64,000 nucleotides of DNA. It comes from Escherichia coli. Its GTDB lineage: Bacteria > Pseudomonadota > Gammaproteobacteria > Enterobacterales > Enterobacteriaceae. The translations under genes were made by a program, and so were the position numbers. A model generated the notes under the pieces. That model was not told where the DNA came from. It saw only the letters and a list, made by a program, of their open reading frames with translations, and ran no database searches. The stretch lies in the NCBI RefSeq assembly GCF_001677475.2, contig NZ_CP015229.1; one strand, given 5' to 3'. This document shows positions 1,729-24,718 of the stretch, one piece after another (positions within the stretch are counted from its first letter, which is position 1; each line of letters opens with the position of its first letter).

Positions 1729-2271
1729 CCCGTGAATAAATCAATGTTGGCGGGTATCGGGATTGGTGTCGCAGCTGCGCTGGGCGTAGCGGCAGTGGCC
1801 AGTCTGAACGTGTTTGAACGGGGCCCGCAATACGCTCAGGTTGTTTCTGCAACCCCAATCAAGGAAACGGTTAAAACACCGCGTCAGGAGTGTCGCAACG
1901 TCACAGTGACCCATCGTCGACCGGTGCAGGATGAAAATCGCATTACCGGGTCGGTGCTCGGCGCTGTTGCTGGCGGCGTGATAGGGCATCAGTTTGGTGG
2001 TGGTCGTGGTAAAGATGTCGCCACTGTTGTGGGGGCGCTGGGGGGGGGATATGCCGGTAACCAGATCCAGGGCTCTCTCCAGGAAAGCGATACTTACACG
2101 ACTACGCAACAGCGTTGTAAAACGGTGTATGACAAGTCAGAAAAAATGCTCGGTTATGATGTGACCTATAAGATTGGCGATCAGCAGGGCAAAATCCGCA
2201 TGGACCGCGATCCGGGTACGCAAATCCCACTAGATAGCAACGGGCAACTGATTTTGAATAACAAAGTATAA
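1729..2271 (+). CDS. ycfJ: Glycine-rich surface/periplasmic protein YcfJ
   Basis: ORF 1693..2271; sequence MNKSMLAGIGIGVAAALG with glycine-zipper region. GTG start at 1729 is inferred. Confidence 0.75.
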   Translation, partial: PVNKSMLAGIGIGVAAALGVAAVASLNVFERGPQYAQVVSATPIKETVKTPRQECRNVTVTHRRPVQDENRITGSVLGAVAGGVIGHQFGGGRGKDVATVVGALGGGYAGNQIQGSLQESDTYTTTQQRCKTVYDKSEKMLGYDVTYKIGDQQGKIRMDRDPGTQIPLDSNGQLILNNKV

Positions 2272-2292
2272 CAAGGCTGTACTCTGCAATTT

Positions 2293-2327
2293 AGCCCCTC
2301 ATTCGCTCAGGCTGAGGGGCTTTTTTT
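2293..2327. terminator. Bidirectional rho-independent terminator between ycfJ and comR
   Basis: Seen in sequence: hairpin AGCCCCTCA...TGAGGGGCT followed by T-run. Confidence 0.5.
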
Positions 2328-2332
2328 GCGAC

Positions 2333-2965
2333 TTATTTCACCAGTTCGGGCCATAAACGCAAAGTCGTTCCGGCAATCTGCATCAGTTTTTCCAGCGATG
2401 CACCTTCGCGTGCGCTGATCGACATCCCCTGAATAATACAATTAAGGAATTCTGCCAGATGTGTCACGTCACAGTGGGTCGGGATTTCCCCGCGCGCTTG
2501 TCGTTGACATAAAAACTGCTGCAAAGTGCGCTCTTGCATCGCATGGCGTGATTTCAACGTATTGGCGATATCTCCTGAATCCGGGGAGAGGGTGGTGCAG
2601 TTGTTGATCATGAAGCAGCCTGCCGGGGTGTCTTTGCTGGTAAAGCAGTTGGCGATGGCAGCAAAATAGTCAGCCAGCGCAGACTCCACGCTTTTCTCTT
2701 CACAAAACAGCTGTGCTTCATGCTTAGCGGCAAAACGATCGATATAGCGGTCGAGTACGGCGCGGAATAACCCCTCTTTGTTGGTAAATTCCGCGTATAG
2801 CGTGGGCGCTTTGGCTCCGGTCGCTTCGACGAGGTCCGCAAGAGAAGTCGCTTCATAACCATGCTGCCAGAACAATTTCATGGCCTTATCAAGCGCGGCA
2901 TCCCTGTCGAACACTTTTGGGCGGCCACGGCTTTTTTTTACACATTGTGTTGAGTCAGTTGCCAT
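2333..2965 (-). CDS. comR: TetR-family transcriptional repressor ComR (YcfQ)
   Basis: ORF 2333..3043; N-terminal TetR HTH (GRPKVFDRDAALDKAMKLFWQHGYEATSLADL). Start at MATDSTQ is inferred. Confidence 0.8.
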   Translation of the reverse strand: MATDSTQCVKKSRGRPKVFDRDAALDKAMKLFWQHGYEATSLADLVEATGAKAPTLYAEFTNKEGLFRAVLDRYIDRFAAKHEAQLFCEEKSVESALADYFAAIANCFTSKDTPAGCFMINNCTTLSPDSGDIANTLKSRHAMQERTLQQFLCQRQARGEIPTHCDVTHLAEFLNCIIQGMSISAREGASLEKLMQIAGTTLRLWPELVK

Positions 2966-3205
2966 GATGCCGTTGTACCTGGTGACTGTGAATGGAAGGT
3001 TATTATAAAAATAATCACCTCCGTTCACCAGTCCAGAAACCATAAAAATAATTGCTTTCTATTTAACTGAAATTTAAAGGTTTTTAAATTAATTAATGAT
3101 TGTTATAAAAAATATCTTGTATGTGATCCAGATCACATCTATCATTTAGTTATCGATCGTTAAGTAATTGCTTACGACGCCATTCATCTGCATAAGGCCA
3201 CTATT

Positions 3206-17919: not shown

Positions 17920-19038
17920 TCAAATAACCAACTTAACCCATTCCTGACCTCGAGTATCGTTATAGCGATCGGTGGTTGCCTGGACTTTATGTCCTAGTAA
18001 TGTTTTTGTATCGATACCCTGTGCACGGTACAGCCGTTCTGATAGAGAGCGTTGTTCATGAAATGTTGGCGGAGTTTTTCCTGCTGGTGGAATTATCCCA
18101 GCCAGATCCCGTGCTTTGGCAAAGTAGTCGCTCAGGTTGTCTTTACTCATCGACTTCGGTTGTTTCTGGTGCCGACTATGGATTAGATATGGACTTAATA
18201 TTCTGTCTCGGCACCCATCAATAACTTCTTTTAACGTTATCCCAATGGCATCACAGCGTAGTGTAAGCGGTAACGCCAGACGCATTCCGGTTTTTCCTTG
18301 GGTGATATGCAAGTGTTCGTTCCACACATCTGAAAAACGCATGTGGCAAATGTCATCACGGCGCTGACCAGTAACAATCGCAAGAAGCATTGCGTTACGG
18401 ATAAAGTGTTTTTCAGGCGTTGCGTTGTAAATTTTTTGCCAGTCTTCCAGGGTGAGTCTGGCTCTGGTTACTTTAGGGATTGGTTTACGGGTAGCCTCCG
18501 GAGGATTCCATCCAGGAGGAACTTCCCCTGCATGCTGTGCTTCTTTATAAATATCAAGCCATAATCCGCGATTTACTCTCGCTGTGCTGACCATGTCTTT
18601 ATCCAGCCACTCATCCAGTATTAATGCAAAGTCTCTTACTTCCAGTTCTTTCAATGGGTGGTTTCCCAGACGGGAAACCAGGAATGCAGCCATTCGCGCT
18701 TTTTCTTTGTGGGTTGTAGCTGCAATATCTCCATTTTTCAGGCGCGCGTCCTGTATTTTCAGATATCGATCAACCCATGCCTTTAATCTGATACCCCGAC
18801 GTTTTGTTGCTGATGGACTTTCATCAATTTTGCGCATGAAATATTCAGCTTCTGCTGCAGCTATTCGCTGATTGGCTGTGGAAGCGATTTTTTCTGCCTT
18901 ACCTTTGTCTGTTCCGAGTCCGTGAAATTTTCCAGTCACAGGATTTTTATACTGGTAGTAAACTCTGCCAGTTCTGCGATCAAACTTTTCGTAAAGACCG
19001 GCTACGTCAGTGCTGTTTTTTCGTGGCCTCGGTGACAT
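17920..19038 (-). CDS. int: Phage integrase (tyrosine recombinase)
   Basis: 372-aa ORF with C-terminal tyrosine-recombinase catalytic region (R...HxxR...Y), next to the disrupted host gene. Confidence 0.85.
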   Translation of the reverse strand: MSPRPRKNSTDVAGLYEKFDRRTGRVYYQYKNPVTGKFHGLGTDKGKAEKIASTANQRIAAAEAEYFMRKIDESPSATKRRGIRLKAWVDRYLKIQDARLKNGDIAATTHKEKARMAAFLVSRLGNHPLKELEVRDFALILDEWLDKDMVSTARVNRGLWLDIYKEAQHAGEVPPGWNPPEATRKPIPKVTRARLTLEDWQKIYNATPEKHFIRNAMLLAIVTGQRRDDICHMRFSDVWNEHLHITQGKTGMRLALPLTLRCDAIGITLKEVIDGCRDRILSPYLIHSRHQKQPKSMSKDNLSDYFAKARDLAGIIPPAGKTPPTFHEQRSLSERLYRAQGIDTKTLLGHKVQATTDRYNDTRGQEWVKLVI

Positions 19039-19337: not shown

Positions 19338-21809
19338 TTAAAAATCAGCCTGATTCGGGATCAGTTTTTGCCAGATAGCTGAAACGTATTTTGCCTGGTG
19401 ACGAGCGTCATCAAGTGCATTATGGCGCTCACCTTCGAATGGGATAGCAGTTCTGGCATCGAAGTCTATGGTTTTCCCCAGCTCAACGATTGTGCGTACA
19501 TCGCGATCGTTGTAGTAACGCCACGGGCAGGGGATCCCCTGCCGTTCGTATGAACGGCGCAAAATCGTGTTGTCGAAGTTGGCTCCATTTCCCCAGACCT
19601 GAACAAAAAACTCACCGGAGTTTTCGGCGATAAATTCCCGCAATTGCAGTAGTGCATCATCTAACGGGATTTCATCGGTCATAATGGCAGACTGCGCTTC
19701 ACGTGATTGCTTCAGCCACCATTTAATGACGTCACGATCAATGACTCCGCCAGCAGTATCCAGATCGATGGTCTTGCTAAATTCCGGTCCCATATCACCG
19801 GTTTGCGGATCGAAAAATATTGCACCTATTGAGATAATCGGGGCATCAGGATTTTTTCCCATGGTTTCAAGGTCGATCATCAGATGAATCCCCGCTCTGC
19901 TGGTGGATGTGAGATTATGATGACTGTTCATCTTAATTAAGGGATCTGTCGCCTCGCCAGTTTTATTATCGCTGGCGTGATGCTGATTGCCGCCAGGGTT
20001 CTCCTTGTGTGGATGTTCAGCGCCTTCCATTTCCTCCGGATCATTTTCCTGAACTTCAGGCTGATTCTCTTCATCGAATATTTCCTGGTATGTTGCGTCA
20101 CCCATCACCGCGCCACAATCAGGGCAGTTGCCGCCACCGCTCTGACCGCAGGCTGTGCAGACTTTTTCCGGTTCCTGTTGCGCTACTGGCTCAGGTTGTT
20201 TCGTTTCTGGCTCGTTTTGTTGCGTATTTGGGCTGTTTTGTTCCGCTTTCTGGTCGTTCTGTTCCGTTTCTTGCTGGTTCTGGTTCACAGAATCGCGGGT
20301 TTCAATCCCCTTCACCCATTTCGGATCATTCGGATCGCTAATCCCTGCAACAAATTCACCACGTGATACTGCAAGCAGTTCATCGGCGTCATGCTGGCTG
20401 ATATTGGCTGCCTGCATAATTTTGTTTACTTCGTCAGCGGTAACTTTTACCGGCCCTGGTTGTGCGGTCGTGTCAGATGCACCAGTATTTTGTTGTGAAC
20501 CTGAGTATGTACCGTTTTTGCGGGCGAAATATTCTTCTTTCGTGATTTCAGTAGCCCCGGCAGCCAGTGCCTTATCCAGACCAGAAAGTTTGTTTGCGCG
20601 ACCGTATTTTTCGCCATCCTTGTCGGTGAAGAGGAAGTAGAATGGCCCCTCACGCTCTACAGATGGTTCGACTTCCACTTTGCATTCGGTTTTTTCGTTG
20701 TCCGGAATTGCCGTTTCCACTGCATCAGTTTCTGGTACTGGCGACGAGAGAGTATCAGTTGCGCTCTGATTTCTTCCTTCATCTTCAAACACGCCCTTTG
20801 TAGTCAGGTATTCAGTAATGTATTTGTTCAGTGCCACAGGGTCTTTGTGAATGTCGATCGGACGTTCACGAACAAGGCCAAAAATAGTCTGGCGGTCGTA
20901 GCGAAGGGCATCAGGCTGTTTGCGCATTGATGCCGAGATACGCTTCCAGTCTTCGCGGTCGTTGTCGATAACTTCATTTTTTGCCCAGCGATGGATGCTG
21001 CCATCAATGTTTCCGACATCCACATCACCAGGCCAGAGAGCGTAGGCCAGTTCGTCATCCAGTGTTTTCCATGTCTGCTTGTATTCGCGATGAGTGGCAG
21101 CAATGACCGGGCTGATTTTTCCTGTTGAATTTTCAGTGTGCTGTTGATTGGCTCTGGCGCGGGCGAGATCAACAACAGACGTGTATTTTCCGGTTTCCTT
21201 GCGTTCACCTTCGCGACGTTTTTTCCAGATGCGCATCTCTGCCTGAATTTCGGGCCATTTGGCACCAGGCTTACATTTATGCTTAACCCACCCGATGGCA
21301 TGCAGCTTAAGCTCCGGATACATGGCGTTAACTTCTGGCATTTTCATCAACGCTTCAACGATATGTCCGTCGAATGTTGCCATGTCTTCCTGCAACAATT
21401 CCTGCGCGCTAATCACCATATCAACGGTGATGTTTTCACATGTACCGAACTTAACCAGGACCGCGTTCTGTACTTCAAGGGACAGCTTGTCAAAATTGAC
21501 GTTAATAGGATCGGATTCTGGTTCGACCGGAATAAAGGAAGCGGATTCCTCATCCCAGCGGTTTTCCTGCATATATTCGGTATCCCAGGAGTCGATAGCA
21601 GGGCGGGGCATGCCGGGTTTATCTTCGCAGACAAGAAATTTATAAGCGCAGTCCTGAGCAGCAGGATATTGCTCCAGGAATTGCCAGGTAAATTTGGCAC
21701 GGGCGCGGCGTTCATCACCGGCTTCAATGGCAGTGGCTACAGCAACTGCGCCCTCTTCTTTTATTGCCTGTTCGTCCGGAATGGCGGCGCAAATAAAGAC
21801 TTTACTCAT
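19338..21809 (-). CDS. Large phage exonuclease: acidic/Q-rich linker, zinc ribbon, C-terminal DnaQ-like (DEDDh) 3'-5' exonuclease domain
   Basis: 823-aa ORF. C-terminus has LMIDLETMG...GANFDNTIL...HNALDDARH motifs; CTACGQSGGGNCPDCG zinc ribbon mid-protein. Functional name inferred. Confidence 0.6.
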   Translation of the reverse strand: MSKVFICAAIPDEQAIKEEGAVAVATAIEAGDERRARAKFTWQFLEQYPAAQDCAYKFLVCEDKPGMPRPAIDSWDTEYMQENRWDEESASFIPVEPESDPINVNFDKLSLEVQNAVLVKFGTCENITVDMVISAQELLQEDMATFDGHIVEALMKMPEVNAMYPELKLHAIGWVKHKCKPGAKWPEIQAEMRIWKKRREGERKETGKYTSVVDLARARANQQHTENSTGKISPVIAATHREYKQTWKTLDDELAYALWPGDVDVGNIDGSIHRWAKNEVIDNDREDWKRISASMRKQPDALRYDRQTIFGLVRERPIDIHKDPVALNKYITEYLTTKGVFEDEGRNQSATDTLSSPVPETDAVETAIPDNEKTECKVEVEPSVEREGPFYFLFTDKDGEKYGRANKLSGLDKALAAGATEITKEEYFARKNGTYSGSQQNTGASDTTAQPGPVKVTADEVNKIMQAANISQHDADELLAVSRGEFVAGISDPNDPKWVKGIETRDSVNQNQQETEQNDQKAEQNSPNTQQNEPETKQPEPVAQQEPEKVCTACGQSGGGNCPDCGAVMGDATYQEIFDEENQPEVQENDPEEMEGAEHPHKENPGGNQHHASDNKTGEATDPLIKMNSHHNLTSTSRAGIHLMIDLETMGKNPDAPIISIGAIFFDPQTGDMGPEFSKTIDLDTAGGVIDRDVIKWWLKQSREAQSAIMTDEIPLDDALLQLREFIAENSGEFFVQVWGNGANFDNTILRRSYERQGIPCPWRYYNDRDVRTIVELGKTIDFDARTAIPFEGERHNALDDARHQAKYVSAIWQKLIPNQADF

Positions 21810-21902: not shown

Positions 21903-22094
21903 TTAAAGTCCTGCCGGTATTTCGTTATTATTAGTGTGAGTAGTTTTATCTACCGGATAACAGTTACCGGGAATTTTTTGTTCTGCTGCTGCAGCCATGC
22001 ATTCTTTCATTGAACCGTATAAGCCAGTCACCAGCTCAAGAGATTCGCCGGAAACAAGATAAACTGTCAGAACGAGTGCAAATGTTGTATTCAT
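21903..22094 (-). CDS. Hypothetical small protein (63 aa) with N-terminal hydrophobic segment
   Basis: ORF only; 4-bp overlap with upstream dicB-like gene suggests translational coupling. Confidence 0.35.
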   Translation of the reverse strand: MNTTFALVLTVYLVSGESLELVTGLYGSMKECMAAAAEQKIPGNCYPVDKTTHTNNNEIPAGL

Positions 22095-22279
22095 TGTTTA
22101 TATCCTTTTTGCAGCAGGTCCAGACGAGCCAGCATTGAAGGAATGCATACTTCATTTAACAGGTCCTGCTCGAGTTTTCTCTGCTTAATGGCGTCTTCAA
22201 TAAATGTTTTGTCTCCAGTGATAACGCCAATTTCGAAACGAAGTTCAGACGTGCTGGCATTACATGATAACTTTTCCAT
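22091..22279 (-). CDS. dicB: DicB-like cell-division inhibitor
   Basis: Internal start of ORF 22091..22384 gives a 62-aa protein (MEKLSCNASTSELRFEIGVITGDKTFIEDAIKQRKLEQDLLNEVCIPSMLARLDLLQKGYKQ) closely resembling recalled Qin DicB. Confidence 0.75.
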   Translation of the reverse strand: MEKLSCNASTSELRFEIGVITGDKTFIEDAIKQRKLEQDLLNEVCIPSMLARLDLLQKGYKQ

Positions 22280-22450
22280 TATCGCGTCCTCAACAATGAA
22301 TTTTGTGATGCGGTGCCTGGTGCCTCCAGGTGACGTTAACCAGTTAACAATTAACGCAGGATACAGAGAATCCACCCATAACACTGTTTTTGGTTTTTAC
22401 TGTTCCGCGTGCGCTGAGCCGCATTCACCGCATCACAAAATTCACTTTTA

Positions 22451-22508
22451 AAAAAGGGCGGCAGAGCAGTCACGGAGTAAAACTGATACCGCCAAATGTC
22501 ACCAGAAT
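22451..22508 (-). ncRNA. dicF: DicF-like small regulatory RNA
   Basis: Minus-strand sequence ATTCTGGTGACATTTGGCGGTATCAGTTTTACTCCGTGACTGCTCTGCCGCCC + T-run matches recalled E. coli DicF except 2-3 nt; lies ~170 nt upstream of dicB as in Qin. Confidence 0.7.
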
Positions 22509-22856
22509 ATTGATAACAGAGGGCGTTGTAGCGGGGTTGTCACTTAAGCGTATGGTCAACCTGACAACCCGGTGTCCTCAACGGGGAAAGGCGTCCCTCC
22601 CACCCCCGCCATACTTACCGCCGCGCCATTTCGCGGGTCGCCACAACCGGAAGCGCACGGTCGAATTAAATTTAACGACACCGTGCAGTGAGACGAACTT
22701 CGCCGTGCGCTTTCGTGTTGTGTGCCTGCTTTTAACCACGTCAGGCGAGGTGGTTTCCGTCATTCCCCAACGACAGGAAATCTGTATAATCTGGGTATCC
22801 CCAACGATCCAAGGAAATCATATGACAGAGCAAAGAGCACAAGCAGGTGATGGTGT

Positions 22857-23303
22857 ATGGACCGGGATGATATTCTTGACAGAATTTTTTATGGCTATTT
22901 TCTTGAGCAACTGTTTTCTGTAGCGACTGGTCGTCTCGATAAACTTCTCTCAGTAGTGAGTATTATCCTCGGTTCATCTGTCATTGGCGGATTCATTCCG
23001 GAAATTTCTGGCGTTTTTATTGTTGTGATCGCAACCGTCCAAACGATTTATGGATTCGGACAAAAGTCAGGTAATACCATGAGAAAATCCGCAGAATATT
23101 TGCAGCTTTTTGATGATGCAGAAAAATATTCTGATTCGGAATTGAAAATTCAGTTAAAAACTCTGGAAAAAACAGATGATCATATTTGGTCATCACTTAA
23201 AGATATTGCGATCTTAAAAACACAGATCAAAATAGGCGTCTCCATCGAACAACAAGAGAAGTTGCCCACAAAATCCAAATTGATGCGATTTCTTTGTGGT
23301 TAG
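22857..23303 (+). CDS. Hypothetical membrane protein, transcribed opposite to the early-left operon
   Basis: 148-aa ORF with one strongly hydrophobic segment; AT-rich relative to flanks; TATAAT at ~22784 and RBS-like AGGTGA upstream. Function unknown. Confidence 0.45.
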   Translation: MDRDDILDRIFYGYFLEQLFSVATGRLDKLLSVVSIILGSSVIGGFIPEISGVFIVVIATVQTIYGFGQKSGNTMRKSAEYLQLFDDAEKYSDSELKIQLKTLEKTDDHIWSSLKDIAILKTQIKIGVSIEQQEKLPTKSKLMRFLCG

Positions 23304-23392
23304 GAATATCCAGATTGTTAAAGAGCATGCCGGAGGTTTATCCGTGTCCGGCGCACGCACTTCATCTGCGGAGAACTACTTGAGCTCATTGG

Positions 23393-23608
23393 TCAGTAGT
23401 TTTCAATCACTCGCGAAACGTTTAATGCCGCGCTTTTTGCCAGAGTGGTAATATCCTGCTCCGCTGACACCAGTTCTTTAGAGAGGCGCTCTTTGTAGTC
23501 AGCGGCCTGCTTCAGGTCATTAATGGCGCGTATCTTTCCGCACATCCATTCGTAAATTTCATCCTCGGTATAGTCTGGTGCGATGATGACGGGTTCTCGT
23601 TTCTGCAT
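23393..23608 (-). CDS. Hypothetical protein (71 aa), early-left operon
   Basis: ORF only. Confidence 0.35.
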   Translation of the reverse strand: MQKREPVIIAPDYTEDEIYEWMCGKIRAINDLKQAADYKERLSKELVSAEQDITTLAKSAALNVSRVIENY

Positions 23609-24039: not shown

Positions 24040-24200
24040 CCACTACCGGGTAACTCTAGGTATTGCCCTGTATTGTGTGGGACGGGATGGGTTGGTATGG
24101 GAAAACTATAGGAAATGCCTAATTGCTTGTCAATAGGCTATGCCTAATGATTTGGGTGCGACCTAATAGGTGATGGTTTGTGGGAGAGGTAGTAGGAGTT
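24040..24200. promoter_or_regulatory. Putative OL/PL-type operator-promoter region
   Basis: Seen in sequence: repeated TGCCTAAT / TAGGCTATGCCTAA motifs between the repressor 3' end and the leftward operon. Confidence 0.4.
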
Positions 24201-24241: not shown

Positions 24242-24718
24242 TTAAGTTCCTGTCTTGGTGATGTTCTGGCTTTTCCGTTTTGATTCTTGATTTTTCAGAT
24301 AGTTAGCTACCTTCATTTCCATTGCGGCAATGTAGGCGCGAACGTCATGATCAACCCAACTAGGCTCCGTAGCATTTCCAGATAAGAGGAAAGCCACAAT
24401 TGCTCTTTTTTCATCAGAGGCGGCTTGATAAAGGCTGTTTATGTCTAAAAGTTCACTTTTTGTATCTGAAGTGGATGGGGTTGGTATGGGGTATTCGTTA
24501 AGCCCCCAATGCTCTGGACCAACCACATCAGAAAAGAAACGCCATAGTTCTGGAAGTTTGTCTTTACTTATCGAACCTTTCTTAATCCAGTCATGGATTG
24601 ATGGTGGTTGGACTTTGAAATGACGTGCGATTTCCGCCTTTGATTTGACGGCTCCTGATGCAATTTTTTTGTTAATGGCCTGCTCTATCGCTCGGCCTAA
24701 GTCTTTACCACTAAGCAT
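24242..24718 (-). CDS. Phage repressor, XRE-type HTH, no S24 peptidase domain (RacR-like size)
   Basis: 158-aa ORF; N-terminal HTH (SKAEIARHFKVQPPSIHDWIKKGSISKDKLPEL); divergent from cro-like gene; C-terminus lacks Ser/Lys peptidase motifs. Confidence 0.7.
   Translation of the reverse strand: MLSGKDLGRAIEQAINKKIASGAVKSKAEIARHFKVQPPSIHDWIKKGSISKDKLPELWRFFSDVVGPEHWGLNEYPIPTPSTSDTKSELLDINSLYQAASDEKRAIVAFLLSGNATEPSWVDHDVRAYIAAMEMKVANYLKNQESKRKSQNITKTGT

Follow-up and report, generated by a model that had tools for sequence, protein, structure and literature searches.

A SLATT-like membrane protein gene behind a sieB-type promoter in a Rac/Qin-like prophage of Escherichia coli

We analysed a stretch of 64,000 nucleotides of Escherichia coli DNA (NCBI RefSeq assembly GCF_001677475.2, contig NZ_CP015229.1), referred to as the window, which carries a Rac/Qin-like lambdoid prophage of E. 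coli. The subject of this analysis is a rightward open reading frame (ORF) encoding 148 amino acids (aa), SLATT-like by its predicted fold, which lies antisense inside the ydfABC-dicF-dicB transcription unit. An earlier reading made from the letters of the window (the sequence-only reading) had placed a gene of this length on the plus strand, opposite to every neighbouring early-left gene, and this arrangement stands, with all flanking genes on the minus strand. Related loci are cited below by our locus numbers, with the prefix L.

22857..23303, plus strand: SLATT-like gene, 148 aa (ORF, translation, family, AlphaFold2 model and Foldseek)
22845..22849, plus strand: Shine-Dalgarno-like AGGTG, 7 nt 5' of the ATG of the SLATT-like gene (sequence reading)

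We found that this ORF is a real conserved gene and not a chance ORF, because the Prokaryotic Genome Annotation Pipeline (PGAP) calls it (as a hypothetical protein, in near-identical genomes), an exhaustive profile search places it in a family of 136 clusters at 50% identity, the ratio of nonsynonymous to synonymous substitution rates (dN/dS) is low (0.09-0.17 for the window allele against the alleles of intact cassettes, which are described below) and AlphaFold2 returns a confident model. Nearly all members of the family are stand-alone proteins of 145-190 aa. The other searches reached less far, with a word-indexed search finding close relatives only, tblastn against isolated phages two records, and a related-locus search with a narrow alignment only near-identical E. 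coli cassettes. The cassette is present in 90 of 5,426 complete E. coli genomes and is always chromosomal. At the C terminus, most family members have a conserved W-(L/F)-A-G-D-L-P motif, in place of which the E. coli clade of the window has RFLCG.

Next, we examined the topology and fold of the protein. The sequence-only reading had described one strongly hydrophobic segment; the hydrophobic stretch in fact covers 40 residues (29-68) and is interrupted mid-way by Pro48-Glu49, giving two transmembrane helices. Using an alignment of 78 sequences, AlphaFold2 produced a model with a predicted local distance difference test score (pLDDT) of 94.8 and a predicted template modelling score (pTM) of 0.85, with helices at residues 3-44 and 48-65. 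This run supersedes one with only seven close sequences, which reached a pLDDT of 54 and was unusable. From its N terminus onwards, the protein has a helix, then a two-helix transmembrane hairpin (~29-47 and 50-68) and then a C-terminal domain that is also helical. The topology prediction that had been proposed as a check therefore upheld a membrane protein and replaced the single segment by a two-helix hairpin. As modelled, this hairpin sets both termini on the same side of the membrane, and by the positive-inside rule that side would be the cytoplasm, with R26 and K29 before the hairpin and K70, R76 and K77 after it.

A Foldseek search of AFDB50 gave 101 matches at E<=1e-3, the best of which are full-length, with template modelling (TM) scores of 0.88-0.97, and are stand-alone enterobacterial proteins. 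Many of these targets carry the SLATT domain name, as do weak matches among the viral proteins of BFVD; the SLATT-named targets are predicted models and not solved structures. The predicted arrangement, a two-helix hairpin in a helical bundle that is matched over its full length, is that of the SLATT fold, and the SLATT effectors SLATT_1 to SLATT_6 have the same predicted fold over the full length, a two-helix hairpin followed by a helical cytoplasmic domain. At the level of profiles, NCBIfam SLATT_4 and SLATT_1 were found below threshold in 11 of the 30 members scanned (12-24 bits against cut-offs of 41-55), in register and usually as the best match, and gave no match to the window protein itself. 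One of 78 relatives matches SLATT_fungal in Pfam at E 0.095, and PADLOC returned weak matches to SLATT associated with reverse transcriptase (RT) and to the 2TM-effector of CBASS. In PHROGs the protein is assigned to phrog_6315, the function of which is not annotated. Judged by its predicted fold the protein is SLATT-like, and it falls short of formal membership by every curated model.

The position of the gene within the prophage is that of sieB. In the Rac prophage of K-12, the order is kilR, the kilS small RNA (sRNA), sieB on the plus strand, ydaF (DUF1391), ydaG, racR, ydaS and ydaT, and the window is colinear with Rac, with the SLATT-like gene at the sieB position. In both, the slot has the kil/dicB-sRNA block on one side and the DUF1391/N side of the early-left operon on the other, and its gene is on the strand opposite to the operon. 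In phage Tritos, dicF and ydfC have nothing between them, and the ~600 extra bases of the window (~22720-23326) are the promoter and the gene. Homology extends to the ~100 bp upstream, where the series of elements that precedes sieB in lambda, P22 and Rac recurs in the same order. We thus find a rightward early-left gene behind a sieB-type promoter, and the likeness to the lambda sieB arrangement is stronger than the sequence-only reading had noted. Since other genes also occupy this slot, as described below, we refer to it as a cargo slot.

22763..22805, plus strand: twin-motif sieB-type promoter, TTCCCCAAC-N25-ATCCCCAAC (alignment with lambda, P22 and Rac; shuffles)
22785..22792, plus strand: -10 region, TATAAT at 22785-22790 overlapping TAATCT at 22787-22792 (alignment)
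23306..23352, no strand assigned: right border of the cargo slot, ATATCCAGATTGTTAAAGAGC, followed by the hairpin GCCGGA-N12-TCCGGC at 23329-23352

The first twin motif overlaps the -35 region and the second (ATCCCCAAC, 22797-22805) stands at the mRNA 5' end; the pair has one match in the window and none in 100 shuffles. The TAATCT of the window aligns with TAAACT, the -10 of P22 sieB. In the P22 record, the sieB promoter is annotated over the first motif and the -10, and the RNA starts at the A just 5' of CCCCTAC; by alignment, the window RNA would start near 22797-22798. The TATAAT that had been claimed as the gene's own is present, and the promoter is backed by its homology with that of P22 sieB, for which both promoter and RNA start are annotated. 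It is missing from a simple consensus scan because its -35 is weak. The upstream region of SieB likewise has a homologous promoter, twin CCCC(A/T)AC motifs and inverted repeats. On the right-hand side, ATATCCAGATTGTTAAAGAGC is also found 3' of other cargo genes, and the GCCGGA-N12-TCCGGC hairpin also in phage Tritos, which is without the module. Two variations of the cassette were also seen. In L015 (strain 2013C-3492), the -10 region of the cassette promoter occurs twice, owing to a tandem duplication of 9 bp (AATCTGTAT) that lies before the small gene. The right-hand neighbour varies as well, with the cassette of some prophages (L012-L015) abutting ydfA (DUF1391) without ydfB and ydfC, both of which are present in the window.

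At the protein level, we rejected homology to SieB, as BLASTP, Pfam and hhalign were all negative, in agreement with the earlier remark that no clear sequence match is seen. BLASTP against lambda SieB gave nothing meaningful (E 0.21 over 13 residues), the SieB family PF14163 was absent from the protein at E<=10 and from all 78 relatives at E<=0.1, and an hhalign comparison of the family with a SieB alignment, made from lambda, P22, Rac and five further sequences and with PF14163 present in all except one, returned a probability of 0.08%. In the controls, Rac SieB matches phrog_6399 at 5e-70 and the retrieved SieB homologues carry PF14163. SieB (lambda, P22, Rac; PF14163, phrog_6399) is likewise a small inner-membrane protein with two hydrophobic helices; its domain layout is a different one, and it makes an internal product, Esc, whereas the SLATT-like module has a separate upstream gene for a proline-rich peptide. 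The comparison with lambda and P22 SieB that had been proposed thus came out negative for the protein family and positive for locus and promoter, so that the sieB analogy holds for the locus but fails for the protein family.

Upon closer examination of relatives of the SLATT-like gene, we observe that in about 17 lineages it is preceded by a gene for a proline-rich peptide of 26-52 aa, with a gap of 3-20 nt, and that a proline-rich ORF lies upstream in every lineage examined, down to 24-30% identity of the effector. The peptides are hydrophilic, and in them an H-x-P motif comes before R-P-x-P-x-P or a proline run, as in MSDENTDYFEKHMPVKQRPPVPPKED, MSYDYEERHMPPFKRPEPPPKPDDSD and MNAPKPDAHKPINERPVPPPKPQRKS. 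The peptide gene is annotated as a coding sequence in phages EKP1 and PSTNGR2lys. Most E. coli cassettes are 118 bp longer upstream than that of the window and encode either a 48-aa peptide, MTEQRAQAGGGNSTHKTVWDHIPEKNIRPKPSPTPSEERGNSNNQTSR, or a 52-aa peptide, with the stop codon 5-8 nt before the effector ATG. Over the 29 codons that the two forms share, they differ by four synonymous codon changes and one nonsynonymous change. The order of the genes and their close spacing in these intact cassettes would fit a type II toxin-antitoxin-like pair.

22839..22849, plus strand: deletion junction, with the single surviving 11-nt direct repeat ACAAGCAGGTG
22822..22926, plus strand: remnant of the peptide gene (alignment with intact cassettes L010-L015 and L003)

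The intact cassettes, among them those of strains 09-00049 and 1303 (L010/L011), carry two copies of ACAAGCAGGTG, 118 nt apart. From the alignments, the window is seen to have lost 118 bp by deletion between these copies, which destroyed the peptide gene, and the same deletion made in silico on L010 gives the window sequence with 1 mismatch in 59. In the remnant, the first nine codons (MTEQRAQAG) are fused out of frame, and the resulting frame crosses the start of the SLATT-like gene and stops 67 nt inside it. The sequence-only reading had pointed out a short upstream ORF at 22822-22926; its coordinates are correct, and it is not a gene of its own but the out-of-frame remnant of the conserved 48-aa gene after the 118-bp deletion. 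As a separate matter, a role of the proline-rich ORF as a stalling leader dependent on elongation factor P was ranked low, since the prolines of the E. coli peptides alternate and are not consecutive, and since the number of codons between the proline run and the stop is not constant but ranges from 3 to 13.

We then compared the effector genes of the deletion lineage, for which we had 11 fetched loci with six effector alleles, from several genomes and with some loci being duplicates of one contig. Relative to the base allele of this lineage, all six private changes are nonsynonymous: L11F and A74T in the window allele, V61D (in the second transmembrane helix), E104G and Q133H in the L132 group, and G148C in L001. 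Two of the six alleles are truncated, one being that of L020/L021, which shares L11F and A74T with the window, of which it is the nearest relative, and adds Q69*, and the other a frameshift allele in L054. Three deletion loci keep an otherwise unchanged effector gene. Among the alleles with an intact peptide gene no truncation was seen, apart from an IS3 insertion in O145 strains, and dN/dS among intact cassettes is low, at 0.09-0.17. The numbers are small, and these comparisons point to relaxed or inactivating selection on the effector after partner loss; such decay in turn suggests that the two genes work together. The window copy is probably impaired, weakened or becoming a pseudogene. As for the O145 strains, L016 (e.g. 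RM9872) has an IS3-family element at 1884-3097 in the SLATT-like gene, of which the first 43 codons are left, and at least a dozen complete O145 genomes have this pattern (12 listed).

Upstream of the inferred mRNA start, we find conserved inverted repeats that may belong to an antisense transcript.

22724..22780, no strand assigned: interleaved inverted repeats and hairpin (compensatory differences between lineages)
24105..24133, minus strand: early-left promoter-like site TTGACA-17-TATAGT, 11/12 consensus (consensus scan)

The repeat GCCTG/CAGGC (22724-28/22742-46) is interleaved with AACCAC/GTGGTT (22734-39/22750-55), and a hairpin (22754-61/22772-80) with the conserved loop ATTCCCCAAC follows. 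Compensatory differences are found as GCCCGG/CCGGGC in Rac and as TTCTCG/CGAGAA stems in lambda and P22, and also occur in L006 and L055. Because these helices lie upstream of the inferred mRNA start, they would, if they form in RNA, be part of the leftward, antisense transcript. By position, a leftward transcript from 24133-24105 would cross ydfA-ydfB-ydfC, then the cassette in antisense and then dicF and dicB, DicF lying downstream on the transcript that crosses the cassette. The repeat of the loop at the mRNA 5' end suggests, on sequence grounds, a loop-to-leader contact by the antisense RNA. In P22, the sas RNA switches sieB translation, and sieB, esc and sas have been described (PMC12197685, PMC12888859). 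The P22 sas/esc system likewise has a structured sequence just upstream of the cargo mRNA start that only the leftward early transcript would cover, and P22 itself carries the upstream element. No Rfam family matches this element. We also observe that the repeats stand in a pseudoknot-like order (window 22724-22780; L182 2653-2712; L181 5555-5635), and that the hairpin stem differs between lineages, with the loop A(T/C)(T/A)CCCC(A/T)AC being conserved and recurring at the cargo mRNA 5' end.

When relatives of the gene are placed in their genomic context, those on long contigs are found in lambdoid prophages, on the strand opposite to their neighbours and at two positions: between an S24 repressor and early-left genes (L006, L007-9, L059-61, PSTNGR2lys), or between the Q antiterminator and the lysis cassette (L005, L056/57, EKP1). 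The only constant neighbour is the gene of the proline-rich peptide. Among viral contigs, the twin motif is found at no fewer than 120 loci, and at least six unrelated cargo genes lie behind the same element (L062-L180, which are viral contigs, and L004, L181 and L182).

SieB (lambda, P22, Rac)
144-151 aa protein (phrog_5286, NCBIfam 'ECs1072 family')
150-175 aa coiled-coil protein with CxxC pairs (phrog_1244)
78-aa protein (phrog_10348)
97-98 aa protein
peptide plus SLATT-like module (several divergent versions)

Since one promoter heads unrelated cargos, we regard the slot as a cargo hotspot. PADLOC found none of the cargos significant, and SieB is the only one with a known role. In the searchable literature we found no prior description of a sieB-slot hotspot, or of SLATT with a prophage or with sieB, and as far as these searches go the peptide-plus-SLATT arrangement in the cargo slot of the sieB promoter is previously undescribed. 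The hotspots of P2 and P4 are prophage and satellite cargo sites for anti-phage genes (PMC9122126). They likewise have conserved flanks around interchangeable, unrelated cargo in related temperate elements; unlike them, the slot described here has as its left flank a specific promoter and leader common with sieB, and holds no recognised defence cargo except SieB. A second twin-motif element was seen in L005 (9216-9509), where it heads a 79-aa CxxC zinc-ribbon protein with a weak match to the ECs_2282 family.

Because of the fold, the homology of slot and promoter, the linkage of two genes and the deletion, we propose that the gene is the effector half of a peptide-plus-SLATT prophage module in the sieB slot, acting by membrane-permeabilising exclusion and silenced by antisense transcription, a proposal to which we give about an even chance. 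A role in superinfection exclusion or abortive infection is suggested, by analogy, by position, promoter and fold. In the lysogen, the module would be transcribed rightward while the leftward ydfABC-dicF-dicB operon is repressed. By analogy with SieB and the SLATT defence effectors, the effector is most likely an inner-membrane protein whose two ends face the cytoplasm. Upon superinfection, the effector would permeabilise or depolarise the membrane and the incoming phage would be aborted. The step of permeabilisation is put forward because SLATT proteins are predicted pore-forming effectors and because DRT10 depends on its SLATT component for both defence and toxicity (bioRxiv 10.64898/2026.04.29.721553). 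The peptide, which would be cytoplasmic, would be a partner of the effector, most simply a labile inhibitor. After induction, leftward transcription across the cassette, together with the upstream structure, may silence the effector, as sas does for P22 sieB.

Several observations weigh against this proposal. As regards the family, the curated SLATT thresholds (Pfam PF18181/18183/18184/18186/18160; NCBIfam NF03363x) are reached neither by the window protein nor by its relatives, Pfam has no family for the protein (even at E<=10), for seven close homologues or for the 78 relatives, PADLOC gave no significant match for the SLATT-like family, and in the PDB a sequence search gave only chance matches and Foldseek nothing below E 0.9. 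The SLATT effectors known so far act together with an enzyme (SMODS, TIR or RT). Among the neighbourhoods viewed, no SMODS, SLOG, TIR or RT partner was found near family members, the surrounding genes being ordinary lambdoid ones; unlike the SLATT effectors with SMODS, TIR or UG/DRT partners (e.g. DRT10), the gene described here has a tiny proline-rich peptide gene and no enzyme, and is a prophage accessory gene at fixed positions. As regards the antisense element, a strand test of the conserved helices found both G:T and A:C pairs, and single-sequence folding gave z-scores of -0.53 in the window, not better than shuffles, and -1.92 in P22. An antitoxin-like role of the peptide is hard to square with the three deletion loci in which the effector is unchanged; such loci would be tolerable only if the overlapping remnant ORF lowered effector translation. 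Finally, by our own estimate, six nonsynonymous changes out of six have a probability of ~16% under neutrality, and the numbers are small.

These points leave room for other explanations. The deletion allele of the window might be a working single-gene version in which the remnant ORF serves as a translational regulator: the ORF is intact, with its own Shine-Dalgarno sequence and a preserved promoter, and the allele recurs across the 11 fetched loci. We think this unlikely, given that every private change of the lineage is nonsynonymous, including a charge in the second transmembrane helix, that two alleles, including the one closest to the window allele, are truncated, and that the partner gene is present in every other lineage examined. 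The linkage of the two genes also bears on a possible addiction module, similar to a toxin-antitoxin pair, that stabilises the prophage or is selfish and has no exclusion role. A small gene closely followed by a putative membrane toxin is the usual antitoxin-toxin order, and the effector degenerates once the small gene is lost; yet promoter and slot are common with sieB and with unrelated single-gene cargos that cannot be toxin-antitoxin pairs, and the deletion allele with an unchanged effector persists at three loci. We consider such a module very unlikely.

Other possibilities concern what the protein does in the membrane. Several known injection blockers are small inner-membrane proteins, and a two-transmembrane-helix protein of small size, expressed in a prophage from a lysogen-type promoter, would suit an entry blocker that stops DNA injection and leaves the cell unharmed (like P22 SieA, T4 Imm or HK97 gp15). 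We consider this quite unlikely, as the SLATT fold belongs to a family predicted and used as cell-killing effectors and as an entry blocker has no need of a tightly linked partner peptide. Slot and antisense-facing upstream structure are moreover those of sieB, the product of which acts after phage entry and needs self-protection (PMC12197685, PMC12888859). To a role in the lytic cycle, as holin, antiholin or lysis-timing factor, we give almost no credence. The protein is a small membrane protein and in some phages its gene lies between Q and the holin and endolysin genes; in those phages, however, the gene and the late operon are on different strands, with canonical genes for holin, endolysin and Rz beside it, and in most others the gene is early-left, behind a promoter type active in P22 lysogens.

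Going further than the proposed exclusion module, the promoter and leader of sieB may constitute a general, antisense-silenced cargo slot, one recurrent cargo of which would be a two-gene exclusion system made of a stand-alone SLATT pore and a proline-rich peptide that gates it, and the other cargos of which would be further exclusion genes; we regard this wider picture as possible but doubtful. If true, a SLATT effector would for the first time be under the control of a peptide and not of a nucleotide- or DNA-synthesising enzyme. The mechanism of SieB, a protein known for decades, is still unclear. If unrelated membrane proteins swap into the same promoter-antisense frame, the slot would be a route to prophage exclusion genes, with five or more uncharacterised families here. 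The peptide-SLATT pair would also be a minimal system of two components in which to study what keeps a SLATT effector closed and what opens it, a question that the DRT10 study leaves explicitly open (bioRxiv 10.64898/2026.04.29.721553). For annotation, phrog_6315 can be labelled SLATT-like, the small partner gene is routinely missed, and the window allele should be treated as a probable decaying copy.

The remaining genes of the early-left region around the cassette are all on the minus strand.

17920-19038, minus strand: integrase
minus strand: DUF4224 excisionase-like gene
19338-21809, minus strand: 823-aa exonuclease
21903-22094, minus strand: DUF1482 gene
22091-22279, minus strand: dicB
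22456-22507, minus strand: DicF sRNA gene (Rfam RF00039, 77 bits against a gathering score of 48, E 4e-16)
23393-23608, minus strand: ydfC-like gene
between the ydfC-like and racR-like genes, minus strand: ydfB and ydfA
24242-24718, minus strand: racR-like repressor

Beyond the racR-like repressor, rightward ydaS/ydaT-like and replication genes follow. The DicF gene is full-length, and the SLATT cassette is inserted between dicF and ydfC, inside the transcript that is normally processed to DicF. Between dicF and dicB, at 22302-22442 on the minus strand, we observe a sub-threshold Rfam match to STnc100 (28.7 bits against a gathering score of 47, E 0.0035). The product of 19338-21809 is named 3'-5' exonuclease by PGAP, and not RecE, and this 823-aa early-left exonuclease has a long acidic, Q/E/P-rich middle of low complexity together with a CxxC-rich patch.

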